Shown piece by piece: positions 12,001-60,053 of a stretch of DNA of 64,000 nt. The DNA lies in assembly GCA_044868555.1 (NCBI GenBank), contig JBIOWO010000253.1:2009-66008 (forward strand), given 5' to 3'. The stretch's first letter is position 1. Each line of letters starts with the position of its first letter. This DNA comes from Lacipirellulaceae bacterium. GTDB lineage: Bacteria > Planctomycetota > Planctomycetia > Pirellulales > Lacipirellulaceae. The notes under the pieces are model-generated. The model was not told the DNA's origin. It saw only the letters and a program-made list of their open reading frames with translations, and made no database searches. Position numbers and translations under genes: made by a program.

Positions 12001-12010
12001 AAACAGATAG

Positions 12011-12126
12011 CCGACCCATCTTGGGTCGGTAACGGCGTCAACAGCATTCCGTTGGCACAAAAAAACCCGGCCAGGATGGCCGGGCTATTTGCGTGACCGG
12101 CCAGGATGGCCGGGCTATTTGCGTGC
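12011..12126. repeat. composite repeat: ccgacccatcttgggtcgg hairpin plus two exact 30-nt units ccggccaggatggccgggctatttgcgtga
   Basis: The hairpin is at 12011-12029 and the units at 12067-12096 and 12097-12126. It sits between convergent genes. Confidence 0.9.
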
Positions 12127-12128
12127 TG

Positions 12129-15100
12129 CTAATCGTTGTTGTTATTATTATTGTCGCCGTCGCCGCGGCGACGATCGCGCCGCCCTTCGCCGTCGCCCCG
12201 TCGCCGATCGCCGCCCTCGCCGCGTCCGCGGCCGCCCTGGCCCGCCTGCTGCTCGGGCCGGCCGCCCGGCCACGGCTTGCTCATCGCCTGGTCGATCGCC
12301 TTCTGCAGCGCCTCGGCGGTGACGCTGCCCGTCACGCGGTGGACCTGCACCGTCGTCTTCGGGGCCGCTTCTTCATCCAGGGCCTGAATCATCGCCACGA
12401 CGCTGGGGTAGAGCTCTTCCTGGACCGAGACCAGAATCATGTTCGAGACGTCGTCGGCGCCGATCGAGAGTGCGCCCTCAAAACCGACCTTCATCGGCGT
12501 GGGACGCTTGCCGCCTTGATCCCCATCAGAGCCATAGCGAAATACGGTCACGCGCTCCTGGCTTTGTCCCCGTTGCCGCTCGTCTCCGCCGCGATCAAAC
12601 TCCTTGTCTTTCGAGCTCAACAGGTCGCGATACACCTGCTTGATCGAGTCGGCGATTGCGGAAGCCTTCGAATATTTCACCTTGATCCAAGCCGTCCGCC
12701 GCGTTCTCACCGAGTCTTCCGGAGCCGGCTTGTCGTACTCGGCGATCAACTGCTCAATCTCCTGCATCTGGCTCGGCGAGGCATTGGCAATGAGGATCGT
12801 GTTCGAGGGCGTGTCCCAGGAGATCATCAGCTTCTTGCGCTTCGACAGACCAGTTCCCTTGTCAATACTGGAGGAGCCGGGCCGAAAGCCATACCAGGGG
12901 TCGTATTCAATCGTGCTCTTCGTATCGCCCTTCAATTCGTCGGCGAAGAAGTCCTCGAGATTCCATTTCATGTTCAGCGCGCTGATGTACTTTAGCCGAA
13001 ATACCTTGTACCGCTTTTCCGGCGGCGAGAGCTTGTCGATCAATTCCTCCATCCGGTCGAGCGCCAACGGGTCCGCCGAGCTCAGCATCAGGCGGCCGTC
13101 CTCGGTCACCGTCACCGTCACCGGCGGGGCCTGCCCGGGCTTCGCAGCCGGCGCTGTGGGCGCCGCGGGAACGTGCGGCGGCTCGGCGGCCGGCGCCGCC
13201 GCTTTGTCGGCAACCGCTTCAGCCGCACCTGCTCCCGTCTGCTCGAGCTGCACGAACTGCGCCAATACGGTCACCGGCCGGCGGAACGCCGCGGACCGAT
13301 CCTTGGTCGATTCGGCCGCCTTTTCGCCCGCCGGGTCTGCCTTCTTCTCTTTGTCTTCCGTTGCTTCGGCCGGCGGTTTCGCCGGCAGCTTGATGATCAG
13401 CTCGTTCTGACCGGATGCCGTCCAAGCGTCTTGCAGCCGCTTCAGCAATTCGTCGGTCGAGACTTCCGCACTCGGCTGCACGAGCCGGAACGGGCTTTGC
13501 TGCCGCTGGCCGTCCGGGATCTCGCCCAACTTCACGAGCAGCCCCCGCACCCGCTCCATCTCCGATTCGTTGGCCCACAACAGGAGTCGATTGTTCTCGA
13601 TGTCGGCATCCACGCCGAAGCCTTGGACGGGCTCGTCCTCGTTTTGGTTATTTCCGTAATCGTCCCAAGGACTCCAATAGCGGCGCTGATTGTTGTCCTT
13701 CTTATCCTTCGTTTGGCCGGCCATCAGGTTGAAAATCGTCGACGCCACCGCGTCGGCCGGCAATCGCCGCAGCCAGACCACTTCGAACTGCCGGCCGGTC
13801 CCGTCGAAATCGGCGATGAGGCTCTTGATCTTGACGTGGTCCGCCTCCGTGGCCAGGGCGAACAGCAGCTTGCTCTTCTTATCGGTCTTGAATTCGACGT
13901 ACGGGCTCAATCCGCCGATCTCTTTGAGCGTGGTAACGAAGTTCTCCGGGTCGAGCGTCGTGAGCGGATACTTTCTCATCTCTCGATCGCCGGTGCCGGC
14001 TGTCGCACCTGCCGTATCGACTGCCGCCTCTCCGCCAAACGGCACGTCCAGGTAGGCAATCGTCTGCTCGATGACTTTCATTTGCTCCGGCGGCGCATTC
14101 ACCAGCACGCTGTTTCGCTGCTTGTTGTAAGCCAGATACACGGGCGGGCCGTCCTGCTTGAGCATCTTCGAGACATCCGTTCCCTTCTGCTGCATCTGGG
14201 CCATGATTTGCAGCCTCTGCTGCTGCAGCTGGATGTCCATCTGCGTGGGCCGCGATTTCGGGTCCATCCCCAGCACCACGTACAGAATGTCGATCACTTG
14301 CTCGGGGCGGGCATGTTTGAGCACGAATTCCTTCGGCACCACCCGCCCGTCCTGCACCATCCGCTCCTCGTTCATCAGCGCGCTCACCATCCGCAAGTTG
14401 GCTACCGCGTCGATCACCAGGATCCGTCTTGATGTCACCAGCGGAAACGTCTTCGCGTTCGGGCTGAGCACCTGCTTGATGTCGTCCTTTGCCTTGTCGA
14501 CCTCCATGCCCGCCGGCAAGTCGAACGTCACCTTCACGAAATCATAGGGCTTCAGATCGAGGAGATCGTCCTCCGTCACCCGCCGGACCGAGCTCGGGTC
14601 GAGCTTGTCGATCTTGTACACACTCAGCAGCTCGCCGGATTGCACCGATATGTAGCCGCGCGCGAGTAGCTGGCGATTGAGGAGGTCGCGCACCTCATCC
14701 AGCGGATAGGCATGTTGTGTCGTCAGGTTGATGTAGCCGCTGGGCAACTCCAGGTAGTCCAAGCTGCATTTCGATAGATTGGCCAGCCATTGCATCACAT
14801 CCGGCCAGCCCTGGCCGATGAAATTGAACGGCGGCACCCTTCCGTCCTTGTCGAGCGCGACTTCTAATTCGCGCGGGTCCGGAGCGCGGGGCGGCTTGTC
14901 CGGCCGCTTGACGCTGTCGCCGCCCTCTTCCTTCTTATCTTTCTTCTCGCCCTCGCCGTCCTTCTTCTGCTCGTCTTTTTTTTCTTCCGGATTGGGCTGC
15001 GGTTGACCGCCTGGCTGCGGCCGGCCGCGCTTTTGCGCCTCCTGAATGGCCTTCATTTGTTCCGGACTCACCGGCTGCCCGTTGGGCCCGGAAATCATGA

Positions 15101-15435: not shown

Positions 15436-15513
15436 GTAGCGGAATTCGCAAGAATTCCGACAATCGGCTGAACGAACGGCGACGTGAGGCTGAATTCTTG
15501 CGACCTCAGCTAC
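15436..15513. repeat. double-hairpin repeat family (gtagc..gaattcgcaagaattc .. ctgaattcttgcgacctcagctac)
   Basis: Same family as 38762-38859, 45192-45248, 53330-53391 and 59999-60053. Confidence 0.8.
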
Positions 15514-15522
15514 CGCGTCGAC

Positions 15523-32568: not shown

Positions 32569-34260
32569 ATGCCCGACGCCGACATCCCCAATTCCCCGTC
32601 GCTCTTCGCCACCACGCTCAACGAGTGCCGCGAGCTCTACGTCTCCAGCGGCCGGCTCTGTGTCCATGAATTTCCCGACCGCATCTCCCCCGCGGGCGAC
32701 AAATTCGTCGAGCTCATGGACGACCTGCACCGGGCCCTCGTGCTCAAGACGTACGTCGCCGTCTGTGAGGCCGACCGCAAGTGGTCCAGCGAAGAACGCT
32801 ACCTGGCGGAAACGCTGTTCCACCATCTGTGGGGCCAGCGGCTCACGGGCGACGACCTTCGCACCGCCGCCAAGCGGGCCGCCGCCGATTCCGGCAAATT
32901 GAAATGGTACGCCCTCGTCCGGCCGTTCGACCAGATCGTCCCCCTCCGCGACCGGATCGGCACGCTCGAATCGCTCGTCATGCGCCTGGCCAACATCATC
33001 GCCCGCGCCGACGGCCAGCTCAACGAGCGGGAAGCGGGCGTCATCAAGTCGATTCAAGAGGAGCTGCAGCGCCATCTGCGCCCGGTGCCGATCGACGAAC
33101 CCACCCAGCACGAGGAAGCCAACGCCACCAGCCAGCAGGCGATCGCCTCGATGAAGAATGATGCCAACGATATCTACGCGGCAACACGCCCGGATGGGGG
33201 CAAGGAGCTGGGAGCACGGAGCAAGGGGCAGGGGGTTGGAAGCGCAACTCCCCGCTCCCCGCTCCAGGCTCCATGCTTAGACGACGCCCTCGCCGAGCTC
33301 GACGGCCTCATCGGCCTCGATCGGATCAAAGACGAAATTCGCACGCTCACCAACTACCTCAAGCTGCAACAGCGGCGCGGCGCCGCCGGCCTGCCCGATA
33401 CCGAGATCAGCCTGCACATGGTCTTCACCGGCAACCCCGGCACCGGCAAAACAACGGTCGCCCGCATCGTTGGCAAGATCCTCGGCGCGATGGGCATCCT
33501 CAAAAAGGGCCACCTCGTCGAGACCGACCGTTCCGGCCTGGTCGCCGAATTCATGGGCCAGACCGGCCCGAAGACGCAGAAGAAAATCGATGAAGCGCTC
33601 GACGGCGTGCTGTTCATCGACGAAGCCTACAGCCTGGCCTCGCACGAAAGCCAGGACGCCTTCGGCGGCGAAGCGGTCCAGGCACTGCTCAAGCGGGCCG
33701 AAGACGACCGCGAGCGGCTCGTCGTGATCCTGGCCGGCTATCCCGACGAAATGGACACGATGCTCAAGTCCAATCCGGGCCTGTCGTCGCGCTTCAACCG
33801 CATCCTCCACTTCGACGATTACTCGCCGCTGGAGCTGGCCCGCATCTTCGCGTTTCTCTGCGACAAGAACCACTACAAGCTGGCCGCTCTCACACGGGCC
33901 AAGCTGATGCTCGGCCTCACCGAGCTGCATCGCATCCGCGACCATCACTTCGGCAACGGCCGCGCCGTCCGCAACCTGTTCGAGCAGGCCATCCGCCGCC
34001 TGGCCAATCGCATCGTAAACATCCGCGAGCTCTCCCAAGAGCAGCTCATGCTCCTGGAGCACGAGGACATCCACCTGGACGGCCTGCCGCAAGGCACGGT
34101 GCTCGACGCGGCCGACGACGGCCCCTGGCGATATCGCGTCCATTGCCCCGGCTGCAAACACACGACCAAAGCCCGCGGTTCCTTCCTCGGCCAAAAAGTC
34201 CGTTGCAACAAATGCAACCACGAATTCGCCGCCGACTGGGGCGAACCGATCCCAAAGTAG
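32569..34260 (+). CDS. AAA+ ATPase (CbbX/SpoVK-type) with TerB-like N-domain and C-terminal zinc ribbon
   Basis: Walker A GNPGTGKTT and Walker B VLFIDEAYSL. N-terminal ARADGQLNEREAGVIKSIQEEL is TerB-like. C-terminal CPGC...CNKC. Confidence 0.88.
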   Translation: MPDADIPNSPSLFATTLNECRELYVSSGRLCVHEFPDRISPAGDKFVELMDDLHRALVLKTYVAVCEADRKWSSEERYLAETLFHHLWGQRLTGDDLRTAAKRAAADSGKLKWYALVRPFDQIVPLRDRIGTLESLVMRLANIIARADGQLNEREAGVIKSIQEELQRHLRPVPIDEPTQHEEANATSQQAIASMKNDANDIYAATRPDGGKELGARSKGQGVGSATPRSPLQAPCLDDALAELDGLIGLDRIKDEIRTLTNYLKLQQRRGAAGLPDTEISLHMVFTGNPGTGKTTVARIVGKILGAMGILKKGHLVETDRSGLVAEFMGQTGPKTQKKIDEALDGVLFIDEAYSLASHESQDAFGGEAVQALLKRAEDDRERLVVILAGYPDEMDTMLKSNPGLSSRFNRILHFDDYSPLELARIFAFLCDKNHYKLAALTRAKLMLGLTELHRIRDHHFGNGRAVRNLFEQAIRRLANRIVNIRELSQEQLMLLEHEDIHLDGLPQGTVLDAADDGPWRYRVHCPGCKHTTKARGSFLGQKVRCNKCNHEFAADWGEPIPK

Positions 34261-34325
34261 TAGGCACCGGGGCACCCGGCCGCCGGGTCGGCGTGCCGTA
34301 ACCGCCGCGGAATTAACTGGTTCGC

Positions 34326-34355
34326 GTAGGGTGTGCTGAGTTCGCGAGACCCACC
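34326..34355. repeat. degenerate copy of the ggtgggtcgag...gacccacc repeat
   Basis: cgtagggtgtgctgagttcgcgagacccacc. Confidence 0.7.
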
Positions 34356-34362
34356 ACCCGCG

Positions 34363-35325
34363 TTACTCAGCCTTCAGCTTCTCAATCAAAAACTTGCGAA
34401 TCGTCGCATAGCTCCAGCCATCGCCATCCGCATACGCCACAACGACCTCGACCCCGGCCTGCTGCATTTTCTCCGCGAGCTTGATTCCATAAATCGCCGT
34501 ATGCGTTGGGTCGGGCTGCCGCGTGCCCACGGTCGGTGGTTGCTTGTCCTTGGAGTAGTACAGCAGCACCGGCGGGTCATCGTTCGTCACCAGCTCGATC
34601 GGCGAGTATTCCCGAATCATCGGCAACAGCCTCTCGCGGTTCTCCAGGAGCAGCGCGAACTCCTCCGGCCGCGTGCGCCCCTCACTCCGAAATCCGAACG
34701 CATGGCCTCCGTACTCGGCGTTCGGAATCCACTCCTTGAGCTCCTTCGGGTCCAGCGACGTCTGTGCCACTTCAACACCCGCGCAGGCCAGCCGTGTCGA
34801 TTCGCGGGAGATTGGATCGCTGTTGTTCGGGTCGGCCAGGTCATCGTGGAACGCCAGCCACAACGAAGTGCAGGCGCCCGCCGATCCGCCCGTCGCGCCG
34901 ATCCGCGTCGGATCGACGTTCCATTCCTTCGCCTTCGCCCGAATGGTCTGCACCGCCCGCGCCGCATCGAGCACGCATGCCTTCACCGGCGGATCGATGC
35001 CTTGTTTCATCGCCTGATCGATAAAGCGATAGTTGATCCGCGCCACCGAGACGCCCGCATCCAAGTACGGCTGAATGAACTCGGGCAGGTACGAGCCCTT
35101 ATCGCCACGAATCCAAGCCCCGCCATGGATCATCACTACCACCGGCGTCGGCCGATCGGACTCCGCCTTCCAAAAATCGAGCTTCTGCCGCTCCGATTCC
35201 TTCCCATACGCATAATCGGCAACGGTCGGCATTCGCCGCTCATCGACCGATTCCCCGCGTTGCTGCGCCGCACCGTTCGCGGTCAAAACCAACAGCAGAC
35301 AAACACCGGCAACATTCCGCCACAT
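34363..35325 (-). CDS. alpha/beta hydrolase (esterase/lipase-like), secreted
   Basis: Signal peptide present. HGGAW oxyanion motif and the nucleophile elbow GGSAGA. Confidence 0.85.
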   Translation of the reverse strand: MWRNVAGVCLLLVLTANGAAQQRGESVDERRMPTVADYAYGKESERQKLDFWKAESDRPTPVVVMIHGGAWIRGDKGSYLPEFIQPYLDAGVSVARINYRFIDQAMKQGIDPPVKACVLDAARAVQTIRAKAKEWNVDPTRIGATGGSAGACTSLWLAFHDDLADPNNSDPISRESTRLACAGVEVAQTSLDPKELKEWIPNAEYGGHAFGFRSEGRTRPEEFALLLENRERLLPMIREYSPIELVTNDDPPVLLYYSKDKQPPTVGTRQPDPTHTAIYGIKLAEKMQQAGVEVVVAYADGDGWSYATIRKFLIEKLKAE

Positions 35326-35375
35326 CGCGCGCCTCGCAAGCTAATGCATTTCCATTTTGAGTGTAGCGGATAATC

Positions 35376-35633
35376 AACCCTCTCCCGGTCCCGGTGAGGG
35401 ACCGGGAGAGGGTTCTTACCCGCTACACGGTTGCCGGAAATGTTCTAACGGCCACTCATCTTCAGCCACCCGCCCGGCATCGTCAAGTTTTTCCGGCGAC
35501 TGGATACTAAACCCTCTCCCTCCGGGAGAGGGCAGGGTGAGGGTTCTTCCGTCTCCCTTCCCTTCACGCGGAACTCGATTACGTCCCTCTTCTGTCTCCC
35601 TCCCCTTCGACGGGGAGGGACTAAGGGAGGGGT
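35376..35633. repeat. cluster of three related G/C-rich hairpin repeats
   Basis: 35376-35414 is identical to 32425-32463. The others are 35509-35545 (aaaccctctccctccgggagagggcagggtgagggtt) and 35590-35633 (ctccctcccc..ggggaggga). Confidence 0.85.
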
Positions 35634-35687
35634 TATCGCCTGCGTGCCACTCGCCGCGGCGAGTGGCAGCCGCGCACCAATCGCATA

Positions 35688-36959
35688 TTACTCGGAAACT
35701 ATTTGACTGCCTTTCCGGAGCACGAGTTCCAGATAAACATCCTTGTCGATTGTCTCGCTAATCGAGTCCACGTGAGCGTCGGCGTAGGCGTGATTCACCA
35801 CGCTAGGATGCCGGCTGCTAGGTCCCCAAATACGCGCTCCTCCGCCGTGCGGACTTATCGGCTGATAATACTTGTCCGGGTTGTTGCCCTGTGGGTCACC
35901 CTTATTCAACGCGATGTCGCATTTTGTTGTGTCGTCGCACGTCCAAGTAAAACGGCCCGGTGCGAATTCCCGACCCGCCGGATCAACTCCGTTGGGCGGC
36001 GGCATGACCGCCACCACGTAGGATGCGAGCCCACTGTACCAACTGGTCAGATTCTCTTCGCGGCTTTCCGTTATTAGTGCGACCTTCGATGTCCCCTTAG
36101 AGAAATGCTTGAAGCTCAGCCCTCTTGTTTGAACCTTTCCCTCGACGACGCCGGGGAACGGCAAACCGCCATTTCCGCAATGAGCGCCACTCGTGCAGTC
36201 CTGCCCACCCGCGTTGGACCCAGCCGCGCTCGGCACTCCGCTTTCCAAATGATGGCTGGGACTCGTCCGATAGTGGGTCGCCGCGAGCGCGACGTAGTTG
36301 CCCACCGCCACCTTCGAATCCGGTATGCCGCCAAACGAGATTACTTCCTCTTCGCCGGGAAAGCTCGGGCATACAAACGACGATATTCTCGTCGACCAGT
36401 AATAGGGACTGCTGGGTGTCGCAGTCGCTTCCCAATTCCAATTGCTCGACAGCGCAAACGCCGCGTCCGCTAGCCTGCCAGATCGCGGGACAGGCGTTTC
36501 TCGGGCGGATGTCATTTTCTCGTAAAGCGTGTTTTCTTCCATAAATGGCAAGCACTGGGCCATCCAGCTGTATCCGTCGCCCTGCTGGCCGGCCGTCCAA
36601 TTTTCCGGCGCTTCCGCACTCGGCGATGCTGCGCCAACCGCCCCATATTTCTGAATACCCTCCTCTGCGACAAGCGGCGACGTGGAGGCCAGCGGCAAAA
36701 CTCCTCGTGTCTCTTGATGATTCTGAATCGCGATCGTCAACTGCTTGAGATTGTTCATGCACTGATTGCGCCGAGCCGCCTCGCGAGAGGTTCTTACCGA
36801 CGGTAATAACAATGCAAACAGGACGCCGATAATCGCAATAACCACCAGGAGTTCGACAAGGGTTAGCGCTTTGCGCTCGAGTTTATTCACTGGCCGGCCA
36901 TTATCGCCGCGCAGCTCGACGCGGGCGAAAGTTCGCCTCGGTTCGGCTTCTGTATCCAT
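35688..36959 (-). CDS. DUF1559 domain protein with prepilin-type N-terminal methylation motif
   Basis: [44 protein letters not shown]. The ATG at 36959 is preceded by GGAGGG. The C-terminus is of the H-x-DGS type. Confidence 0.88.
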
Positions 36960-37009
36960 GGCAATCCCTCCTGCAGGAAAAGAAAAGGAAGATGAGATCG
37001 ACAAACGTA

Positions 37010-37732
37010 TCATCGTGCAATAATTTCCATCGCCGGCAACTGCAATTTGATAGGCGCGGGCACTGAACGACGTTCGCCGGTCATCCGCCCTCCCACCAAT
37101 CGCCCACGGAGCGCAACCGTAAGCTCGAAAGCCGCCAGCGGAACCACCCAACTGGCCCACGAAGCGAGAGGATAAGCCCAACTATCTCCGACACCGGTCA
37201 CCGTCGCCAGCCCACCGATGATCCTGAGAACTACCGCCGAACATAACAACAGATACGAGCGAAACATCCACCGACGATGTTCGGCAAATCGCCGTTTCAC
37301 GGCGGCTCGCCATCCGAGCAGCACACTCATTCCGGTGGCGATCCCGAGCACGAAAAACCCAATGGCGGCGTACGTCCCCGTTTGAGCGTAGTAAGCCATC
37401 CACAAGCCGCTCGGACAAAGCAGCAATATGACAAGTGCCGCTTGGACTTTTCCCAACGAGCGATGCGACATCGGAAATCGCTTCCGAAACTCATCGCTGA
37501 CGAGAATCAATCCAAGTAGGAGCGAGGCGGGGCCGGAGAAAATATGCGTATAGAACGCCCATCGGTAAGCGCCGAAAAAATAAGTTTGCCGTCCGCGCAG
37601 AAAATCCGAATCAAAATTGGGCGGGAAGTATGCGCGATAGCCGAGAATCACGCTCAACGTGACTTTGACAATCAAGACGACTGCCAGCAGCATCAATACA
37701 CGTTTCAGAACCGTTGAGCGAGAGTTTTGCAT
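37010..37732 (-). CDS. polytopic membrane protein (DUF2306-like)
   Basis: Six or more hydrophobic helices. The family assignment is tentative. Confidence 0.65.
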
Positions 37733-37855
37733 ATTTCCCAGATTATTCGTGGGAAAACCGATCTAGTATTCCGCACAGTCCCAGGTTTTCCGTCACTTTC
37801 GTCCTTTTGCAGGCGCATGATGGCCGTCCCCTTCACCGCTTTTCCCTCCCGCTTC

Positions 37856-38749
37856 TCACAGCTCCTTCACCATCCGCTTCAGCGCAAAATGCCGATAGCT
37901 CTCGAGCGCGAGTTCGGCAATCTCGTCCCAATCCTGCTTCTCTTCCACATCCAGGTCGATCCAGCCGTTGTGGCCCGTGTACTGGGAGATTTCAAACCGC
38001 TTGCTCCCAAATTTGCCACCACGCTTGTCCGCAACGAGCTGCTTCTGCCGCGCGGCACCGACCCAGAACGATAGCTTGAGCCGGCCCGTGTAATAGTGCG
38101 CGGTGCCAAAAACTTTGGTGCCCGCCAGCCACGTCGGCATGCCAAACCGTGTGCCGCGCTCCGTCTCCGGAAGCCGGGCGCAGATCGCGTCCAGCTTCTT
38201 GAGCACCGCCCGGGCCGCCTTGCCTTGGAACCGGTCGATTTCTTCCGGCCGAAACTTCCGCGTCGGCGGCCGCACGCGCAAATCCTTCTTCAGCGACCGC
38301 ACCAGCTCGGCCGGCGCCACCATCGCGTACGCCTCGCGCACATGCTCGCCAACGGTCGACCAGCCGAGTCCCTTATCGAGCTCCACGCCCAGCCATCCCG
38401 ACGGCCCAACATACGGCGGCACAAAGTACGGCCAATCGTTGCCCTTCTTCGCCTTGGTTTTCCCGACACTCAACTCTCGACTCTCAACCCTCAACTTTCC
38501 TTTTCCGGCCATCAACTCTCGACTCTCAACCATCAACCCTCGCGCCAACGCCGCCTGCGCCCCGCGCGGCGCCATCAGCCACAGCGCCACCCGCCCATCG
38601 CCATGGTGATTGATCGCATACATGCCAAACACGTTCCGCCCGCGCACCCGAAACGTCGGCATCCCATGCGACACAAACTCCTCGACCTCGGGCAGCGCCG
38701 CCATGATCTCCCGCACCGTGTCGCTGATAGTTCGCTCAACTCGGGGCAT
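37856..38749 (-). CDS. tandem MmcQ/YjbR-like domain protein with repeat-derived insertion
   Basis: Two YjbR-like halves (..PSGWLGVELD.., ..HNGWIDLDV..). An inserted VESREL..VESREL segment is encoded by the repeat DNA at 38467-38541. Confidence 0.65.
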   Translation of the reverse strand: MPRVERTISDTVREIMAALPEVEEFVSHGMPTFRVRGRNVFGMYAINHHGDGRVALWLMAPRGAQAALARGLMVESRELMAGKGKLRVESRELSVGKTKAKKGNDWPYFVPPYVGPSGWLGVELDKGLGWSTVGEHVREAYAMVAPAELVRSLKKDLRVRPPTRKFRPEEIDRFQGKAARAVLKKLDAICARLPETERGTRFGMPTWLAGTKVFGTAHYYTGRLKLSFWVGAARQKQLVADKRGGKFGSKRFEISQYTGHNGWIDLDVEEKQDWDEIAELALESYRHFALKRMVKEL

Positions 38750-38761
38750 GGCTGTCCCTTT

Positions 38762-38859
38762 GTAGCTGAACTCGCAAGAGTTCAGACGAGCATCTGAAGT
38801 TTTGTAGCTGAACTCGCAAGAGTTCAGACGAACATCTGAAGTTTTGCAACTTCAGCTAC
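38762..38859. repeat. tandem duplication of the double-hairpin repeat (gtagctgaactcgcaagagttcag..ctgaagtttt)
   Basis: Two approx 45-nt units, the second completed by gcaacttcagctac. Confidence 0.85.
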
Positions 38860-39002
38860 GGATTAAATCTGCTTCGAGTGGACCGCTGGCTGCCATTGCT
38901 GGCTGGACACCACCCGCCATTTTGACGAAGACCGCTCCGCAGTGCTAGGATTTCAGCCCGAATTAACGCCTGTTGACAATATAACATAAAGGTTATATTA
39001 TT

Positions 39003-39362
39003 GTGGTGTGGGATGTCGAATATACCGATGAGTTCGAACAGTGGTGGACGAGCCTCACCGAAGATGAACAGGCCGACGTGAACGCCGGCGTCGAATTGCT
39101 CGAACGTCATGGGCCGCAGTTGGGCCGGCCCCACGTGGACACATTGAAAGGGTCGAAGCATTCCAACATGAAGGAACTACGAACGCAATCCAGCGGCAAG
39201 CCGCTTCGCACGTTTTTCGCCTTCGATCCGCGTCGCACCGCGATTCTGCTCATCGGTGGCGACAAGACCGGCGACAAGCGATTTTACGATCGTATGGTGC
39301 CGATCACCGACAACCTGTACGACGAGTACTTGAAGGAAATCGATCGGGAAGGGCTCATCTAA
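39003..39362 (+). CDS. RelE/ParE-superfamily toxin (HigB / Gp49-like)
   Basis: VEYTDEFEQWW..L...LGRPHVDTLKGSKHSNMKELR...RTFFAFDPRRTAILLIGGDKTG. GTG start. It is followed at a 1-nt overlap by an XRE antitoxin. Confidence 0.85.
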   Translation: MVWDVEYTDEFEQWWTSLTEDEQADVNAGVELLERHGPQLGRPHVDTLKGSKHSNMKELRTQSSGKPLRTFFAFDPRRTAILLIGGDKTGDKRFYDRMVPITDNLYDEYLKEIDREGLI

Positions 39363-39682
39363 TGGCCGGACATCGCAAGTTTCAACTGCTTCGAGACAAG
39401 CTGACCCCCGCCCAGCGCGAGCGCTCCAAGGCTCGTCTGAGCGAACTGCAGAAGGAAATGCTGCTGTCCGAGCTACGCAGGGCCGCTGGCCTGACGCAGC
39501 AGCGACTTGCCGACGAACTTGGCGTCTCGCAGCCCTGTTTGTCCAAAATGGAAAAGCAATCCGACATGCAAATCGGCACGCTCGAACGGATTGTTACGTC
39601 GCTTGGCGGCCAGCTTGAGGTGATTGCACACATGCCCGGAGGAGATGTCGTTTTAACGCAATTCACTCAGCGTTCTTCCTAG
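39362..39682 (+). CDS. XRE-family HTH antitoxin (HigA-like)
   Basis: HTH segment LRRAAGLTQQRLADELGVSQPCLSKMEKQ. Confidence 0.85.
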   Translation: MAGHRKFQLLRDKLTPAQRERSKARLSELQKEMLLSELRRAAGLTQQRLADELGVSQPCLSKMEKQSDMQIGTLERIVTSLGGQLEVIAHMPGGDVVLTQFTQRSS

Positions 39683-39698
39683 GCATGCGACGCGATAC

Positions 39699-40055
39699 TC
39701 AGCCGCCACCAACCGGCTTCCCGTTCGCCAGCAGCGTCATCTCAATAGTCCCGCGCGTCGCTTTCGAGTACGGGCAGATCGTGTGCGCCTTGGCGACCAG
39801 CGCCTCGGCCTGCTACTGGCGGACGCCCGCCAGTTCGGCGTCGAGCGTCGCATCGATGAAGAAGCCGCTGTCGTCCTTGTGCAGCCGAACTGTGGCCGTG
39901 ACCGCTCGCCTCACTCGCTTCGCCGTGTCCTCCGTGCCTCCGTGGTAAATCAGTTCGGCGATGGCCAAAAATAGTTGCTGAACTTGCCCGTCGTTTGTGA
40001 TACGGTCGATGTCGCACAATATTGCGCGCCGAAAGAACGCCGGCAACATTGTCAA
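39699..40055 (-). pseudogene. degraded Ohr/OsmC-family peroxiredoxin gene
   Basis: The C-terminal [27 protein letters not shown] matches Ohr. An in-frame TAG at 39813-39815 separates it from the upstream part. The first catalytic Cys position reads Y (AIAELIYHGG), and the N-terminus is truncated and diverged. Confidence 0.55.
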
Positions 40056-40474
40056 TCAGCGTTCGCGCTCACCCTGCACACCGACCGCCATGTTCCATCA
40101 CCCACCAGCCATCAATCAACGTAACCAACGCCGTTCTCCCAGTTTGAACGAGCTGGCCACGGGGCGACCCCCATGCGCACGTGACCCCTTCGAAAGTTTA
40201 ACGACTTACGTCGACGCGCTCGTGACCCCATCGCAAAAACAAGCCATTTTTGCGGGCCTAAGTTCGACCCCCCTGTCGTCTTCGAAAATCGAAGCCACTT
40301 CCGAAAGCTCGCCCGCCCCGATTGAGAATTTGATGCAAGATTTCAGCGCTGCCGTCATGTCTCTGCGCCCTCCGGGACCTCCTGTTCAAAACGCTCGATC
40401 GAAAATCGCAACCGGCCAAAAATAGTTGCTGAACTCGCACCACGAATCTGCTAACGTCGATTTCGATGATGCGA

Positions 40475-40515
40475 GACTCTCCGTTCGGCTGAGCTCACGG
40501 CCGAAGCCCGACCCC
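40475..40515. repeat. repeat gactctccgttcggctgagctcacggccgaagcccgacccc (reverse orientation of 6927-6965)
   Basis: Near-exact reverse complement of the copy at 6927-6965. Confidence 0.85.
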
Positions 40516-40678
40516 GGCACCAACAACACGCGTGTTCTCAACTCGAATCCAACTGCGATCATCTGCGAAATCCGCGGCAAAAAACCCGTCTGGAACCCGG
40601 AGTGTCGCGCGCCGCCCAAATCTGCTAAATTTCCAGCCTAGCCCATTCTCAGGCGCACGCGAAAAATGGATTGATCCT

Positions 40679-42481
40679 ATGTCCGCCAACGGCACACTAT
40701 CCCCTGAAAAACCCTCCCTCAACTTCATCGAGCAAATCATCGAAGCCGATCGCGCCGCCGGTAAGAACGGCGGCCGAGTCCACACTCGCTTTCCCCCCGA
40801 GCCGAACGGCTACCTCCACATCGGCCACGCCAAGAGCATCTGCCTGAACTTCGGCCTCGCCGAGGAGTACAAGGGCAAGTTCAACCTGCGCTTCGACGAC
40901 ACGAACCCCACCAAGGAGGAGCAGGAGTACGTCGACTCGATCATCGATGATGTCGACTGGATCACCTCCGCGTTTGCGGGCGACCAGCGAGCCGGGTCGT
41001 CCCCGACCCCGGCCCGTTCCGAACCGCTCTATGCGTCCGACTATTTCCAGCAACTCTACGACTGGGCCATCCAGCTCATCAAAGAGGGCAAGGCCTACGT
41101 CTGCGACCTCACGGCCGACGAAGTTCGCGCCCATCGCGGCACGCTCAGCGAACCGGGCAAGAACAGCCCCTACCGCAATCGGTCCGTCGACGAAAATCTC
41201 GACCTGTTCGAGCGGATGGAGAAGGGCGAGTTCCCCGACGGCGCCCGCACGCTCCGTGCCAAGATCGACATGGCCTCGCCCAACATCAACATGCGCGACC
41301 CGGTGATGTACCGCATCAAGCACGCCTCGCATCACCGCTCGGGCGACCGCTGGTGCATCTACCCATCCTACGACTACACCCATGGCCAAAGCGACTCGAT
41401 CGAGGGCATCACCCATTCCATCTGCACGCTCGAATTCGAAAACCACCGCCCGCTCTACGACTGGTTCTGCAAAGAACTGCGGATCCACCACCCACAACAA
41501 ATCGAGTTCGCCAGGCTCAACCTCACGTACACGGTGATGAGCAAGCGCAAGCTGCTTCAGCTCGTGCAGGAGAAGCACGTCGCCGGCTGGGACGACCCGC
41601 GGATGCTCACCATTCGCGGCCTTCGCCGCCGCGGCTACACGCCCGAGGCAATCCGCGCGTTCTGCGAGCGGATCGGCGTGGCGAAATTCAACAGCACGAT
41701 CGACATGGCCTGGCTTGAGGACGCGATTCGCGAGGACCTGAATGTCCGGGCCCCGCGCGTGATGGCCGTGCTCAAGCCGCTCAAAGTCGTCATCACGAAC
41801 TATCCCGAAGGCAAAACCGAACAACTCGCAGCGGCCAATCACCCGCAGTACGCCGCGCTGGGCACCCGCAGCGTGCCGTTTTCGCGCGAGCTGTACATCG
41901 AGGCCGACGACTTCATGGAAGACGCCCCCAAAAAATTCTTCCGCCTCGCCCCCGGCCGCGAAGTGCGTCTCCGCTACGCTTACTTCATCACCTGCACCGA
42001 AGTGGTCAAAGACAAGTCCGGCCACATCACCGAGCTCCGCTGCACCTACGACCCAGCCACGCGCGGCGGCAACGCGCCCAACGGCCGCAAAGTGAAAGGC
42101 ACGATCCACTGGGTCGATGCCGCCTCTGCCGTCAGTCCCGAAATCCGCCTCTACGACCACTTGTTCAAGACAGAATTTCCAGATGGTGGGGGACGAAAGG
42201 CGGACACCGAAGATCCAGACGATCCCTCCGGTCCTCAACCCTCAACCCTCAACTCTCAACCCTCCACCTTCCTCGACAACATCAACCCAAACTCACTCAC
42301 GATCGTCCGCGACGCCAAGCTCGAACCATCGCTCGCCGCGGCCGCCCCAGGCCAACATTTCCAATTCGAGCGCCTCGGCTACTTCTTCACCGACCCAATC
42401 GACTCGAAACCTGGCAAACCGGTTTTCAGCCGCACCGCGACGCTCCGTGACACGTGGGCCAAGGAATCGGCCAAAGAATAG
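40679..42481 (+). CDS. glnS: glutamine--tRNA ligase
   Basis: [14 protein letters not shown] (HIGH), VMSKRK (KMSKS) and C-terminal [10 protein letters not shown]. The start is taken at MSANG. Confidence 0.95.
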
Positions 42482-42498
42482 GCGAAGTTTCATAGATC

Positions 42499-43311
42499 GT
42501 GACCGTCAAACATTATGACAATCCGTTAGTGCAGGCGTACTTTGAAAAGGTGCTGCCGTCGCTAGTCTTTGTCGAGTGCACAAACGTTGCAACAGGTCAG
42601 GTTTTGTGTGGAACGGCGACGGTGATTGCACATGGCGGCGATTCGGCAGGCGGTTATATCCCGTATTTGGCAACCGCGGGCCATTTGTTACCCGAAGCAA
42701 ATGTCGCGACTCATTTTCGACTGACTCGGTACACGTTTGAGGATCTAGCGAACCCAATGTCACGAATGGCCGAATTTGAAATGCCTCATGCAGAAAGCAC
42801 TCGTAAGACTCCAGCATACATAAAGATTGGTGATAAGGACGGCCTTTCCCGTTTGGACATTGGTTTGATCCGGGCACCGATCACCTGCATCGATGGCCAG
42901 CCTTGGTTCGTAACGAATAAGCCTTCAACAGAGTCAATGTCTATCCAGCCGGCGTCCGCTTGGGCAGCTGAAGGTTCGCAAGTCGCTTGGGCAGGATTTC
43001 CAGCGCTCGCTATGGACATCGCGCGGCGTCCACAACCTTGCTATTACCAAGGGGTCATTTCGTCGTTACTAATTAGGAACGAATTCCAGATGTACCTCAT
43101 TGACGGACACAACACGTTTGGCATTAGCGGCGGTCCTGTCTGGTGGATCAACGCTGAATCACGAGTACCAACCGTAATTGGTATCGTATCATCCTATCGC
43201 TTTAGCAAACAAATGAACGCCATGCCTGGATTGGTTGCTGCAACGCCGATCCAGCTTTTGTTGTCGCTGGTTTTTCAAGACTACGTTGCTAAGACCTCAA
43301 CGATAAATTAG
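42499..43311 (+). CDS. trypsin-like serine protease fold protein
   Basis: TAGHLL (His region) and GISGGPVW (GDSGGP-like). GTG start. The DNA is clearly AT-richer. Confidence 0.55.
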   Translation: MTVKHYDNPLVQAYFEKVLPSLVFVECTNVATGQVLCGTATVIAHGGDSAGGYIPYLATAGHLLPEANVATHFRLTRYTFEDLANPMSRMAEFEMPHAESTRKTPAYIKIGDKDGLSRLDIGLIRAPITCIDGQPWFVTNKPSTESMSIQPASAWAAEGSQVAWAGFPALAMDIARRPQPCYYQGVISSLLIRNEFQMYLIDGHNTFGISGGPVWWINAESRVPTVIGIVSSYRFSKQMNAMPGLVAATPIQLLLSLVFQDYVAKTSTIN

Positions 43312-43382
43312 GGATTGGCCGATCCCGCGATTAGCGCGCAATCGCGCCCCTAACGTGGAGACACAACGGAGGCGCCCAATCG

Positions 43383-43571
43383 CTACTTCGGATCCGGCAC
43401 GGACAGCCCGCGACAAATCTTGATCGCGAGCCGATCGCTAACTTCCGTGTGCCGTGGCACCGCTTCAACCTCGCCCGTGTGCGGGTTGGTCCACAGCGAG
43501 TGCGAGCGGCCCTCGCGCTTCAGCCGACAGCCATGACGCCGCAGATGGCGCAAGAAAGAGGTCCGCTTCAT
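43383..43571 (-). CDS. hicA: HicA mRNA interferase toxin
   Basis: LRRHGCRLKREGRSHSLWTNP...VPRHTEVSDRLAIKICRGLSV. Confidence 0.88.
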   Translation of the reverse strand: MKRTSFLRHLRRHGCRLKREGRSHSLWTNPHTGEVEAVPRHTEVSDRLAIKICRGLSVPDPK

Positions 43572-43831
43572 TCGACAACGACGATCTCGCGTTCGGCATC
43601 GGCGGGCACGCCGCGCAAACCGTCCTCGCGCCGATCTTCAAGAATCAACGCAATCGCATCGCGCAGACTGGTCACAGCTTCTTGCTTGGTCTGGCCCTGT
43701 CCGTTTGCTCCCGGCACTTCGGGGCAATACGCGATGAACCACGGTCCATCCTGTTCGATCACGGCAGTGAATTCGTTTCGCATTGAATGCCTCGAATTTT
43801 GCCAGCGAGCAACCATCGCCGACAATGACAA
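43568..43831 (-). CDS. hicB: HicB-family antitoxin (probable start 43783)
   Basis: FTAVIEQDGPWFIAYCPEVPGANGQGQTKQEAVTSLRDAI. It overlaps hicA by 4 nt. Confidence 0.85.
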   Translation of the reverse strand: MSLSAMVARWQNSRHSMRNEFTAVIEQDGPWFIAYCPEVPGANGQGQTKQEAVTSLRDAIALILEDRREDGLRGVPADAEREIVVVE

Positions 43832-43927
43832 TTTTAAGCGATGAACCTGACTCCGACTATCCCGTCTTCAACTGCTGCGCTCCGCGCCACCTGGGCCAAA
43901 GAGTCGGCCCGAGAATAGATCGAGAGA

Positions 43928-45088
43928 TTAGCGGTGCTGAGGAATTCGACGGCCGAGCCCACGGCAACCGCAGACAATAAGCATCCCAACCATGAACGCG
44001 GCGAAAGACGGTTCAGGCACCACCAAGGTCGCCACCACGCCGGCATGGTCGGCCGGCCACAGACCAGACGGTGTGCGATCGGCAAGTGCCTCGCCAACGG
44101 TGTCTGCGTCCACGGCGAGTGGTCCGTTCCTAGTCAGGATCAGGTCGACTCTTTGGGATAGCTCGGAAGGGTTATTCAGGAGGTCTGCATCTTGGCAGCA
44201 AGTGTATCCGGGATCGCCGGGGTGAACTACGCTCCAGGCGTCGCTGAATCCGGCGCCAATCAGGCTGGCGTAGGTTGAGGACCCACTGCCATCGGCCGGA
44301 GAATTGAAGTCGCCGACGAGAACGGTGGGCGAATTTGAATTGGTTGGACCGGAGAGCAATTCGGCGGCTTGAAGCACTTGAGCCGCCGCGACCGGATCGA
44401 GATGCGTGTTGAAAAATCGGAAGTCGAGTCCATCGGTGTCGACGTCCACTGCCGTCCACCCGCGCAAGAAGTTCACTCCCAACGCCGAGCCAAACACCGC
44501 GTAGTTGCCGGATTGCGGATTGGAGACTTGGAACTGAGAAGGTGGGAGATCGGTGCGAGCGAGGATCACGTCGCGGTCCGTCAGTCGAATATCTTGCAGA
44601 ATCGGACTAGTGTCGGGATTAAACCCGATAAGTCGCGGAAACTCGGCATCGACGTTTTGAACTGTTGCCACCGCCGCGTAGCTCAAGCCCCGCGCACTGA
44701 GTGCGTTGAGCATCGTCGACAAGAAGTCGATTTCCACGGTGGTCGCATGAGGCGCACCTGGACCATCAAAGGGCGCGGACCGAAACAGCGACACCTCCTG
44801 CAAACCAATCAGGGCCGGTTGCTTCTGGTCAACCTCGAGAGCGATGGCGTCCGCTCGGGCGGCGATATCGCTGGCCAATACTTGCGCATATATCGTCGTG
44901 GTGAGCGCCACGACGTTTCCCGGATTCGCGCTGACATCGGCAACGTACTGGCCAACGTCAAAGCCCACATACATGTTTTGTGTCATGACGCTGACCGCCG
45001 CGTCAATCCGCGGAGCGAGCATCAAGCCGACCAACGCGGCAAGATACAATCGAGAAGCAACGGAATCGAAATGTGATGCGGACATCAT
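43928..45088 (-). CDS. endonuclease/exonuclease/phosphatase (EEP) family protein with PEP-CTERM anchor
   Basis: LQEV, VGDFNS and PADHAGV motifs. The C-terminus reads VVPEPSFAAFMVGMLIVCGCRGLGRR. Confidence 0.8.
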   Translation of the reverse strand: MMSASHFDSVASRLYLAALVGLMLAPRIDAAVSVMTQNMYVGFDVGQYVADVSANPGNVVALTTTIYAQVLASDIAARADAIALEVDQKQPALIGLQEVSLFRSAPFDGPGAPHATTVEIDFLSTMLNALSARGLSYAAVATVQNVDAEFPRLIGFNPDTSPILQDIRLTDRDVILARTDLPPSQFQVSNPQSGNYAVFGSALGVNFLRGWTAVDVDTDGLDFRFFNTHLDPVAAAQVLQAAELLSGPTNSNSPTVLVGDFNSPADGSGSSTYASLIGAGFSDAWSVVHPGDPGYTCCQDADLLNNPSELSQRVDLILTRNGPLAVDADTVGEALADRTPSGLWPADHAGVVATLVVPEPSFAAFMVGMLIVCGCRGLGRRIPQHR

Positions 45089-45191
45089 CGTGCCCTTTCA
45101 TCTCGCATGGAGCGATCCTTCTCAGGGGTGTTAAAGTGCGCAGCATAGCACATCCGCCAGTTGATAAGAAGCAGTTTCATAACGCGCTTTG

Positions 45192-45248
45192 GTAGCTGGA
45201 TTCGCAAGAATTCAGCCAGGAGGGCTGAAGTTTTGCAACTTCAGCTAC
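45192..45248. repeat. double-hairpin repeat gtagctggattcgcaagaattcagcc..gctgaagttttgcaacttcagctac
   Basis: Same family as 59999-60053. Confidence 0.85.
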
Positions 45249-45304
45249 CGTATTGAAACTGCTTCAAGTCAAATAAACTCAAAACAATGGAAAACTGCGG
45301 CAAA

Positions 45305-45455
45305 GGGCACGTGTCGCTGGCCGGGCTCGGCCAGCACTTCCAATTCGAGCGCCTCGGCTATTTCTTCACTGACCCCGTCGACTCGAAGCCCGCCACCCCG
45401 TCTTCAACCGCACCGCCACCCTCCGTGACACCTGGGCCAAAGAAGCGGCCAAGGA
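45305..45455 (+). pseudogene. orphan, frameshifted duplicate of the glnS 3' end
   Basis: 45329-45455 aligns to 42350-42478 at roughly 80-85 percent identity (by eye). It reads [21 protein letters not shown], then a 1-nt deletion, then [18 protein letters not shown] in the +1 frame. Confidence 0.75.
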
Positions 45456-45646
45456 TTGAATGATATCCGGCGGCCCATTGCCCGCAAGTAAGGAGCGACT
45501 GATTGAATTGCGGCCAACTTGGGCAACGCTGGTCCACACCCCAAAATGGCGGCGAACTTTGGACTAGTTCGGTTGCCGTCGAACAACTTGCTCTCCGGCA
45601 CAAGAACTGCTCATCCGTCTCGTGCCAGAGTTCGAGAGGGTGAGCT

Positions 45647-46168
45647 ATGTCGGCCGCAATCTTGGACAACGTGTTTGTCATGCTGTGCGACTGGCGGGGC
45701 AGATGCGTCTGGACGAGCACGCCTCATGTTCTTGTCGATGTTGGAGAATTCATATGGCGGCGATTGACGGCCGATTCGCAGGAACGGGCTAAGGCTGTTT
45801 TTGCCCGCGTGGTCACCCTCAGGGAAATGCAGGAAGCTGATATTTCGGACGAAGGCGGCAGAGTTTTTCACGGTCGCTTTTGGCCGCTCGATTCGCCGGA
45901 CGCGGCCGTCTGCATCATCGGTGCCCGAATTCCCGAGCAAATGGCACGGCTCGGGCCGCGGGAAATCGAATGCTTGAAATTGCTTTCTGAGGGGGCCGAT
46001 GCCCGCAGTATGGCGGAGCAGCTCGACGTGGGAGTGAGCACCGTCCACACGCACTTAAAGCGGGCCCGAGTGAAGCTCGGCCTCCCAAGCATGGAAGCGC
46101 TGATCGCCTTCTCCGCGCGATACTTCTACCAGCCCGAAAGTTCACTCAAGCGACGGGCCGCCAATTAG
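45647..46168 (+). CDS. LuxR-type HTH regulator with PAS-like N-domain (paralog 1)
   Basis: The N-terminus has CDWRGRCVWTS...WPLDSPDAAVC. C-terminal HTH: REIECLKLLSEGADARSMAEQLDVGVSTVHTHLKRARVKLG. Confidence 0.8.
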   Translation: MSAAILDNVFVMLCDWRGRCVWTSTPHVLVDVGEFIWRRLTADSQERAKAVFARVVTLREMQEADISDEGGRVFHGRFWPLDSPDAAVCIIGARIPEQMARLGPREIECLKLLSEGADARSMAEQLDVGVSTVHTHLKRARVKLGLPSMEALIAFSARYFYQPESSLKRRAAN

Positions 46169-46454
46169 CGAAGGCAATGCGCAAAAACGAGTCAATTGTG
46201 ACCGCGCTGCGCCAAAATAAAGCATACGTGCTGAGTGGCTATTCAGTCCGATGCGATTTGTCACACCGGCTCGTACATTGGCGATAGGCAGCGTACGATC
46301 GGCCACGCACTTTGCTGGATGAAATGCCGGCCGGGGCGATCCTGCCCCGGATTCCGCCCCGTCCGGCCAGATGCGCTTTGGGCGCTCCATCTACATCGGC
46401 TATATTCGCATCGTGTCAACATCACGAGTGACACAATCTTCGTGAGGTTTTGTC

Positions 46455-46940
46455 ATGTCGGATACGACACCGGACGATATTGCCGTAACGGTTTGCGACT
46501 GGAACGGTCGACTCATCTGGACGAGCCGGAATGCCCCGTGTTGTGGCGCCGGCAATCCCATCTGGGAAGGCGCTGCTCCCGAATGCGCAGAGGCCGTCAG
46601 AGCGGCCGTCTCGCGCGTCGTGGCGCTGCGCGAACCGCAGCAATACGAGGCGGCCAACCTGCGCGGGGAGTTTTTCCACGTTTGGATGTGGCCGCTCGAC
46701 TCGCCTGAAATCGCCGTCTGCATGCTCGCCGTGCGAGTTCCCGTCGAACTTTCACTGCTCTCGACTCGCGAGCGAGACTGTTTGCATTTGTTGGGCGCAG
46801 GCGCGGCGCCCGGCGCGATTGCAACCGCCTTGGATATCAGCGTGAGCACGACCCACACGCATCTGAAGCGGGCGCGGGTCAAGCTCGGCATCGAGAACAT
46901 CGAAGCACTGATCAGCTTTGCCGCCCGACACTGCGTCTGA
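46455..46940 (+). CDS. LuxR-type HTH regulator with PAS-like N-domain (paralog 2)
   Basis: Collinear with paralog 1: CDWNGRLIWTS...WPLDSPEIAVC; RERDCLHLLGAGAAPGAIATALDISVSTTHTHLKRARVKLG. Confidence 0.8.
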   Translation: MSDTTPDDIAVTVCDWNGRLIWTSRNAPCCGAGNPIWEGAAPECAEAVRAAVSRVVALREPQQYEAANLRGEFFHVWMWPLDSPEIAVCMLAVRVPVELSLLSTRERDCLHLLGAGAAPGAIATALDISVSTTHTHLKRARVKLGIENIEALISFAARHCV

Positions 46941-59983: not shown

Positions 59984-59998
59984 ATCGCCGCTTGTTCC

Positions 59999-60053
59999 GT
60001 AGCTGGATTCGCAAGAATTCAGCCCAATGTCTGAAGTCTTGTGACTTCAGCTA
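59999..60053. repeat. double-hairpin repeat gtagctggattcgcaagaattcagcc..ctgaagtcttgtgacttcagctac
   Basis: It starts 16 nt after the orphan thpR fragment. Confidence 0.85.

Follow-up and report, generated by a model that had tools for sequence, protein, structure and literature searches.

Two stacked modules in the 3′ end of a planctomycete glnS gene point to a recurrent insertion hot spot in Pirellulales

The gene for glutamine--tRNA ligase (glnS) of a soil planctomycete is followed by two compact gene modules, stacked one behind the other and each closed on its far side by a copy of the last nucleotides of glnS itself. The gene lies in a 64,000-nt stretch of DNA (here called the window; Lacipirellulaceae bacterium, assembly GCA_044868555.1, contig JBIOWO010000253.1, positions 2,009 to 66,008), to which the coordinates below refer unless a related locus is named. 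This two-module architecture is well supported. Comparison with related loci suggests that the glnS tail is a recurrent insertion hot spot in this clade, receiving unrelated cargo. We regard it as fairly probable that the modules entered by repeated site-specific insertion into a conserved core of the glnS tail, with tandem stacking, through a recombinase that acts in trans or has since been lost. Such a process would involve a circular intermediate besides the recombinase, and the cargo would be expressed by read-through. The original prediction, made from the letters of the stretch, had described a single 2.85-kb island with a double hairpin near its remnant. It was partly supported, and is corrected here to two insertions, a recurrent hot spot and an unrelated hairpin. 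The features of the locus are as follows.

40679..42481, plus strand: glnS, glutamine--tRNA ligase, 600 aa, open reading frame (ORF) intact.
42340..42481, plus strand: copy 1, the working glnS 3′ end, in the role of attL; reference copy of the repeat families D1-D3.
42482..43860: module A, the more recent insertion, 1.38 kb, lying between copy 1 and copy 2.
42499..43311, plus strand: predicted trypsin/chymotrypsin-fold serine protease, 270 aa, GC 0.50.
43383..43571, minus strand: hicA-like toxin gene, 62 aa (Pfam HicA_toxin E 2.6e-5, below the cut-off).
43568..43783, minus strand: hicB-like antitoxin gene, 71 aa from the ATG at 43783 (weak Pfam HicB_lk_antitox match).
43861..43918, plus strand: copy 2, short glnS-tail remnant, 58 nt, with a 5-nt deletion and an in-register TAG.
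43919..45318: module B, the older insertion, 1.40 kb, consisting of one gene and a 230-nt spacer, bounded by copy 2 and copy 3.
43928..45088, minus strand: secreted endonuclease/exonuclease/phosphatase-family (EEP) hydrolase, 386 aa, with a signal peptide and a PEP-CTERM-like end.
45319..45459, plus strand: copy 3, long glnS-tail remnant, 141 nt, with a 1-nt deletion near 45389 and an in-register TGA at 45457-45459.

The identity of glnS is given by the NCBIfam glnS equivalog (E 5e-216) and three Pfam domains, and its reading frame is intact despite the insertions. The host is a member of the Pirellulales close to Lacipirellula, Bythopirellula and Aeoliella; its GlnS reaches identities of at best 77-79% among species-representative genomes and 84-86% among metagenome proteins. 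The backbone order of the clade is Peptidase_S10 - AAA ATPase - glnS - (ABC/DUF1854 - polysaccharide deacetylase) - MotB - MotA, with which the window agrees. The DNA right after the glnS stop codon is different in nearly every genome of the clade.

The predicted reappearance of the glnS 3′ end (42350-42481) at 45329-45455, with an identity estimated at 80-85%, was confirmed: within the window, 42350-42477 and 45329-45455 are 84.4% identical over 128 nt (E 2e-35). The homology of copy 3 to glnS runs from 45319 through the in-register TGA, and the gap near 45389 is the 1-nt deletion that had been said to break its frame. The shorter copy 2, which had not figured in that description, is 79-83% identical to the other two copies (E 1e-6; 79% in repeat finder family D1). 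In all three copies, the homology ends at the stop codon. This third tail copy (43861-43918) indicates that the single 2.85-kb island is in fact two successive insertions, with module B entering first and module A second. The similarity is to this glnS and not to gltX, as had been supposed: the gltX-like region of the window, at about 7.7 kb, gives only an 18-nt match, and when the island was compared with plasmids by distant blastn, the matches were annotated glnS genes alone, reached through copy 3 alone.

Copy 2 is only 58 nt long, which might favor a chance match, a misassembly, or a duplication of the glnS end in local tandem, into which unrelated genes drifted later. These explanations are effectively refuted by the E values of 2e-35 and 1e-6 with stop codons in register, by the recurrence of the architecture in independent assemblies, by the colinearity of remnants with the working tails of relatives (described below), and by metagenome contigs, which contained the same structure in two independent soil runs at 8x depth. 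In the assembler contigs of these two runs, no clean tail-to-tail joint was seen. A single 'skip' joint from 42088 to 45344 was considered as an excision product and rejected, as one side is 21 nt long and non-equivalent tail positions are joined; it most likely reflects the glnS of a relative that matches copy 3 better than copy 1.

Module A is coding-dense and free of debris. Its protease gene begins with a GTG 17 nt 3′ of the glnS stop, and this long start is backed by homologues of 269 aa. The match to Pfam Trypsin_2 (24.5 bits) is below the cut-off of 27.6 bits. The residues His62, Asp120 and Ser210, the last in a GxSGGP motif, are invariant across 10 homologues, and an AlphaFold model (AF2; pLDDT 84, pTM 0.85) retrieved chymotrypsin, thrombin, DegP/DegS and HtrA1 from the PDB with Foldseek (E about 1e-9, range 3e-9 to 8e-8). 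Thus, the earlier assignment as a trypsin-like protease holds, and the triad and the modelled fold together predict a PA-clan (trypsin/chymotrypsin-fold) serine protease. The family is rare, with 11 homologues in a collection of 5.8 billion proteins, and none lay beside glnS in the two genomic contexts that were retrieved. The AT-richness noted for this gene was also borne out (GC 0.50 as compared to 0.61 for the window), and the GC profile showed the dip to be restricted to it. The hicBA call holds weakly: the Pfam scores of 24.7 (hicA) and 17.6 (hicB) are weak matches below the gathering cut-off of 27 bits, while the two genes overlap by 4 nt and have homologues in relatives. The pair is kept in the related loci L088, L167 and L172; homologues in relatives are 75-91% identical, with those of hicA in L172, L167 and L088 at 76-87%. 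The cross-locus homology of hicB stops exactly at the ATG at 43783. We also considered hicAB as the backbone of an element tied to the short remnant, and rejected this, because the pair also occurs without a remnant and upstream of glnS.

The gene of module B is convergent with glnS, and its stop codon lies 9 nt past copy 2. Its EEP assignment stands, with a match to Pfam PF03372 at 32.1 bits, above the cut-off of 24.5, and to PDB 3teb (E 2e-4). The PEP-CTERM part of the original call is visible by eye as a C-terminal VPEP, a hydrophobic stretch and RR (VPEP...RGLGRR), with no match in Pfam or NCBIfam; one homologue, P0136 (72% identical), carries PF07589. More than 1900 homologues were found, the closest of which, P0133, 86% identical, is in a metagenome-assembled genome (MAG) of Pirellulales, on a 195,294-bp contig that appears to encode a GlnS (P0113) as well.

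To compare the site across relatives, every locus was queried both with the tail of its own glnS and with a set of tails. Remnants of the glnS tail were found behind other cargo in 7 of about 14 related Pirellulales loci and in one distant lineage, L097, arranged from glnS outward as listed.

L083: glnS, methyltransferase, short remnant, HepT-MNT, long remnant.
L165: glnS, MNT-HepT, long remnant.
L171: arrangement as in L165, with the long remnant internally deleted.
L081/L082: glnS, ATP-grasp gene and an ORF, short remnant.
L170: glnS, 973-aa ORF, short remnant.
L088: glnS, 405-aa ORF and hicAB, short remnant.
L097: glnS, CPBP/Rce1-like protease, short remnant.

The short remnants of L083, L081, L088, L170 and L097 are the counterparts of copy 2. 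The GlnS of L097 is only 64% identical to that of the window; among its named neighbours, a Zixibacteria MAG comes closest, at 69%. No comparable tail repeats were found in about 150 more distant loci. Sites that are empty and lack a remnant occur in L166, L164, L001, L085, L086 and L172; in L166, the conserved ABC gene follows glnS directly. A remnant in relatives without the island would have counted against an insertion, and none was seen in L164, L166, L001, L085 or L086.

The modules measure 0.87-3.25 kb and are filled with intact, coding-dense genes, with no pseudogene debris or integrase fragments. The GC content of the cargo is usually lower than that of the host (0.50 vs 0.61, 0.52 vs 0.63, 0.46 vs 0.49-0.54). 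The first gene is oriented like glnS in 6 of 6 short-class modules, and co-oriented cargo starts 14-200 nt past the glnS stop. This orientation and spacing suggest that such cargo is probably transcribed by read-through from glnS. None of the cargo gave a convincing match to anti-phage defence models. In L165, one of the loci with a long remnant, an HNH endonuclease gene (9567-9968, 133 aa) lies 33 nt upstream of glnS.

The filled and empty sites also bear on the direction of displacement. In L083, the short remnant and the DNA 3′ of it are colinear with the working tail and 3′ DNA of L171 (83%, 761 nt) and of L165 (73%, 952 nt), implying that the methyltransferase module was inserted some 55 nt ahead of the stop codon in an arrangement like that of L165. 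The working glnS of L083 ends in an odd KEQVRP* terminus, a new end that came with this module. Similarly, the remnant and flank of L088 fit the working tail and flank of L001 better than the tail of L088 itself does. A gene of about 930 aa, repeat-rich and with a PEP-CTERM-like end, lies directly 3′ of glnS in L001 (11846-14641) and after the short remnant in L088 (3421-6231), so that the two loci offer a clean comparison of an empty with a filled site. Compared in this way, filled and empty sites show the remnant to be the old gene end, displaced, and the working end to be an import. The original view of foreign cargo in the glnS 3′ end, with the rightmost copy as a displaced and decaying end, is thereby sustained.

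In the window, copy 3 keeps the clade-consensus residues (DPVDS, VFNRT, KEAAKD), while the working tail differs at three of them (DPIDS, VFSRT, KESAKE); at the diagnostic positions, the working tail has I, S and S against V, N and A in the clade, and copy 3 carries V, N, A and D. The mean identity to 13 orthologous tails is 79.4% for copy 3 and 76.5% for the working tail, although these figures are noisy. An attempt to tell the native from the imported tail by identities over 57 nt was given up, as these were too noisy to decide on their own; the displacement is instead argued from the colinearity in relatives and the consensus residues. Copy 3 is the older of the two displaced tails and probably the original, native gene end. 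By analogy with the relatives, copy 2 would have been the working tail before module A arrived, and the final 20-57 nt or so of the present glnS would have been supplied by an element.

Alignments of the left copy, the empty site and the right copy (attL, attB and attR) share a common block from about -57 to -17 relative to the glnS end. This core of about 40 nt (...AACCGCACNGCNACNCTNCGNGACACNTGGGCNAA...) consists of conserved glnS-tail codons. In L097, 36 of 36 bases from -57 are identical, followed by 5 mismatches in the last 21 nt; in L083, a perfect block of 29 nt is followed by 17 final nucleotides that are wholly different. Six short remnants have their left edges between -48 and -66; in the long class, the left edge is at about -124 to -147. 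The cargo gene of L097 ends 4 nt before its remnant, which indicates that the short edge is real and not an effect of uneven conservation.

From this anatomy, we propose the following course of events. In a first step, the EEP module would have entered the glnS tail, pushing the original last 140 nt or so to the right, where they became copy 3, and supplying a new gene end. In a second step, the module with the protease and hicB-hicA would have entered about 57 nt before the stop codon, so that the then-working last 58 nt became copy 2 and the present end was supplied. Newcomers would thus settle beside glnS and push older modules outward, and the displaced ends, no longer under selection, would decay, as their frameshifts show. 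As the modules carry no recombinase, the enzyme would come from another part of the genome or from a helper element that was present only transiently.

No mobility gene remains in the modules, as the original prediction had stated. Its implication of a large island in decay did not fit the compact modules without debris. This older view, here applied twice, would have integrase-bearing islands or prophages enter at glnS and later deletions spare a gene or two together with the att repeats. The att-type anatomy would suit it, and 15 of 31 islands at ssrA in Dehalococcoides lack an integration module (PMC3146451). A predicted viral contig, L168 (IMG/VR UViG_3300033002_000089), likewise abuts a glnS 3′ end: at 9882-14707, portal and large-terminase genes come right after the stop codon of a full-length glnS in an unrelated bacterium, and the contig may hold a prophage end at this site, the other end being off the contig. 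Still, at least 7 independent modules are all compact and without integrase fragments or debris, one of them with a cargo stop 4 nt from the remnant; repeated deletions that each spare attR exactly are unlikely; and an intact integrase-bearing element beside glnS was not seen in about 170 loci. We therefore hold decay from large elements to be improbable. The compact modules of one or two genes without debris favor instead cassettes that would lack a recombinase of their own and be serviced in trans, in the manner of cis-mobilizable elements (CIMEs) and pseudo-SCC (staphylococcal cassette chromosome) elements.

A recombinase was sought in several ways. None was found by Pfam among the larger ORFs of the window from 24 to 63 kb (the modules and 15 kb on either side), in the precomputed gene calls of nine related contigs, or by crude motif screens of about 170 loci; nor did these roughly 170 loci contain a cognate integrase-bearing element beside glnS, for which the viral contig L168 is the one lead. 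In viral contigs, one pattern for an attP-like mimic of the tail matched nothing but a complete glnS next to prophage genes, where the 13 kb available contained no remnant, and a core-only pattern had no match. Phage and plasmid databases gave no related element. Rfam had no match in 42.0-46.5 kb, and a scan for promoters and terminators did not rise above shuffled expectation. By eye, attC-like or dif-like symmetry is absent from the glnS tail, and the sole strong hairpin belongs to a dispersed repeat family (described below). The locus resembles att-flanked islands in its tail-derived flanking repeats, intact target and empty sites, with no integrase of its own found; it resembles CIMEs and pseudo-SCC elements in being att-flanked without recombination or transfer genes, while no cognate integrase-bearing element was found beside glnS.

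Several observations weigh against site-specific insertion by such an enzyme. With no recombinase, helper element or circular form found, the key enzymatic step is drawn from the anatomy alone. No island-free variant of the organism was seen among the metagenome contigs, which are assembler contigs only. The left edges of the short remnants scatter over about 15 nt and do not fall on one nucleotide, and the two length classes need two kinds of attP, unless the long class arose through a tail mimic of greater length or by another process. Different cassettes have only the glnS-derived block in common and share no arm-type motifs, some of which might be expected of a single element family. Over their final 57-60 nt, copy 3 and the long remnant of L165 show 90-95% identity, the value varying with the alignment, as compared to only 76% for the parts upstream, which the simple model does not predict. 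Finally, L172 has hicAB close to glnS but no remnant, and in L167 the pair lies on the upstream side of glnS, so that part of the cargo may have moved otherwise.

One alternative is RecA-dependent integration of the Campbell type, in which a circle bearing a 40-150-nt piece of glnS tail would enter by a single homologous crossover, with no dedicated recombinase. The circles would arise in another genome by looping-out of a module between two tail copies, as the flanking direct repeats allow for each module. That no recombinase was found and that the glnS-derived block is the sole sequence common to the cassettes agree with this, and the perfect blocks, at 29-36 nt, are roughly as short as homologous pairing permits. 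However, recombination is very inefficient when it has only 30-60 nt of imperfect homology to act on, and this route gives no account of how unrelated genes in different phyla were first joined to a tail fragment with the same edge near -57. Imported ends that are unlike glnS, such as KEQVRP* in L083, fit an element-borne arm better than a captured piece of glnS. We consider this route unlikely.

Homology-facilitated illegitimate recombination would also make a recombinase unnecessary. Here, linear DNA from a relative, comprising the 3′ part of glnS and a downstream gene, would pair through glnS, a highly conserved anchor, and its far end would be joined illegitimately within the tail of the recipient, whose last nucleotides survive as the remnant. 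The DNA 3′ of glnS is indeed hypervariable across the clade, even where there are no remnants (L172, L167, L085). But joins of this kind should scatter, and those observed cluster at -48 to -66 (six) or -124 to -147. Moreover, the 36-nt perfect block of L097 followed by 5 mismatches in 21 nt is unexpected for a divergent donor and recipient, and the same edge recurs in this lineage with its 64% GlnS identity. We judge this course, too, to be improbable. Thus, it is the clustered edges and the change from a perfect block to divergent sequence that place both homology-based routes below site-specific insertion.

Tandem islands are known at ssrA, tRNA genes and rlmH; what is unusual at glnS is that there is no recombinase and that the modules are very compact. 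In Dehalococcoides, tandem islands of about 10 kb or more, with a 20 bp repeat, occupy ssrA, the tmRNA gene, and a serine-recombinase module is present in 16 of the 31 (McMurdie et al. 2011, PMC3146451). They share with the glnS modules the stacking 3′ of a conserved single-copy gene, the direct repeats of its 3′ end and the strain-specific cargo. In contrast, the target here is a protein-coding aminoacyl-tRNA synthetase gene, the repeats are 58-141 nt of coding sequence, the modules are 0.9-3.3 kb and none has a recombinase. The tycheposons of Prochlorococcus use tRNA genes as targets and encode tyrosine recombinases together with replication modules (Hackl et al., bioRxiv 10.1101/2020.12.28.424599). 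In tycheposon islands, as here, newcomers push earlier elements deeper, and these islands hold partial target copies and degraded elements; the glnS modules differ in having neither a tyrosine recombinase nor replication genes.

In Staphylococcus, pseudo-SCC elements without ccr lie at the 3′ end of rlmH/orfX. CIMEs take part in site-specific accretion, as at the 3′ end of fda in Streptococcus (reviewed in PMC5704250). Both resemble the glnS modules in being att-flanked, without recombination genes, placed at the 3′ end of an intact housekeeping gene, arranged in accretion arrays and dependent on a recombinase in trans, as we propose here. Their cognate integrase-bearing integrative and conjugative element (ICE) or SCC is known, however, and often sits alongside, whereas no helper was found for glnS; the glnS modules are also far smaller, and they consistently begin with a gene that reads in the direction of the target.

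There is also a likeness to integron arrays, in the one-gene, mostly promoterless-looking cassettes of about 1 kb, the toxin-antitoxin pairs, the fixed expression platform and the repeated end site. It is functional only and does not make the locus an integron. No IntI gene or attI lies beside the array, the genes upstream of glnS being HigBA-like, YjbR and AAA genes with no integrase among them. The repeated site is the glnS coding tail, without the imperfect palindrome and R/L boxes of attC or any arm symmetry, and the shared stretch is 30-40 nt, as compared to 6-7 nt in integrons. Taking the likeness further, one might speculate that the last 20 or so conserved codons of glnS serve as an integron-like docking site for recombinase-less single-gene cassettes, with the enzyme in trans, in Pirellulales and at least one other phylum; we offer this tentatively, as a possibility that we doubt. 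If it were so, the cassettes would borrow the constitutive transcription of glnS, and an essential gene, that of an aminoacyl-tRNA synthetase, would form the base of a gene-capture platform.

The genomes of planctomycetes are large and plastic, with poorly described routes of gene gain, and the locus is a concrete, recurrent point of entry: a 40-nt stretch of an essential gene at which proteases, nucleases, methyltransferases and toxin-antitoxin pairs gather with no mobility gene in sight. Should the cassettes be serviced in trans, an undescribed pair of recombinase and site would be at work, and the site would offer genetic tools a natural safe harbour in a group that is hard to engineer. For annotation, the lesson is that short, out-of-frame copies of a gene end can mark the borders and the order of successive insertions.

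The spacer of module B and the DNA beyond copy 3 contain two further features.

45161..45272: long imperfect hairpin formed by the inverted repeats I1/I2 (fold -50.3 kcal/mol, z -5.45).
45647..46940, plus strand: two paralogous LuxR/GerE-type regulator genes (Pfam GerE).

The hairpin had been noted for its position near the remnant. It is one member of a dispersed, genome-wide family of long imperfect palindromes with the core GTAGCTGRNNTCGCAAGARTTCAGNC ... TCTGAAGTYTTGCRACTTCAGCTAC, found at 15488-15514, 38790-38900 (two tandem copies near 38.8 kb), 45161-45272 and 59998-60024, and for this reason it belongs to no attachment site and is no feature of the island. The family resembles repetitive extragenic palindromic (REP) elements or miniature inverted-repeat transposable elements (MITEs), and is best described as a REP-like dispersed repeat. 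At 45161-45272, the read data showed doubled depth and contig breaks, and members of the family give rise to contig breaks in public assemblies.

The LuxR/GerE pair is part of the backbone, outside the island, since a matching pair lies 3′ of glnS in L001 (16022-17618). In both loci, the two genes are small and in tandem, with a conserved N-terminal domain that has no assigned function. The window and L001 are 76% identical across the final 900 nt or so of the glnS body, and the pair is missing from most other relatives.

The flanks of glnS are variable on both sides. Upstream, about 6.3 kb (34300-40650) separate the AAA ATPase gene (32569-34260) from glnS, where relatives have only an ORF of 70-100 aa. 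This segment is probably the 'island 1' of the earlier work, and contains a 346-aa ORF, a DUF1559/N-methyl protein, a DUF2306 protein, a YjbR/DUF1801 protein and a HigB/Gp49-like gene paired with HTH_37 (39003-39682), together with the tandem REP-like hairpins near 38.8 kb, where the GC content dips to 0.48.

Within glnS itself, the region encoding the anticodon-binding part has a low-complexity insertion at 42150-42300, with 14-nt tandem units at 42234-42264. Its length and sequence vary across relatives, and some are without it. The read depth climbs to about 100x over this segment, implying further occurrences of the motif in the metagenome. Another insert specific to the lineage, at about 40950-41030, is shared with P0005 alone. 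A further homologue, P0002 (ENA contig, 6552 bp), encodes a GlnS of 832 aa with an internal duplication of about 270 residues, running from PYRNRSVEENLDLF to DDFRENPPT, which could be either an assembly artefact or a real duplication within the gene.

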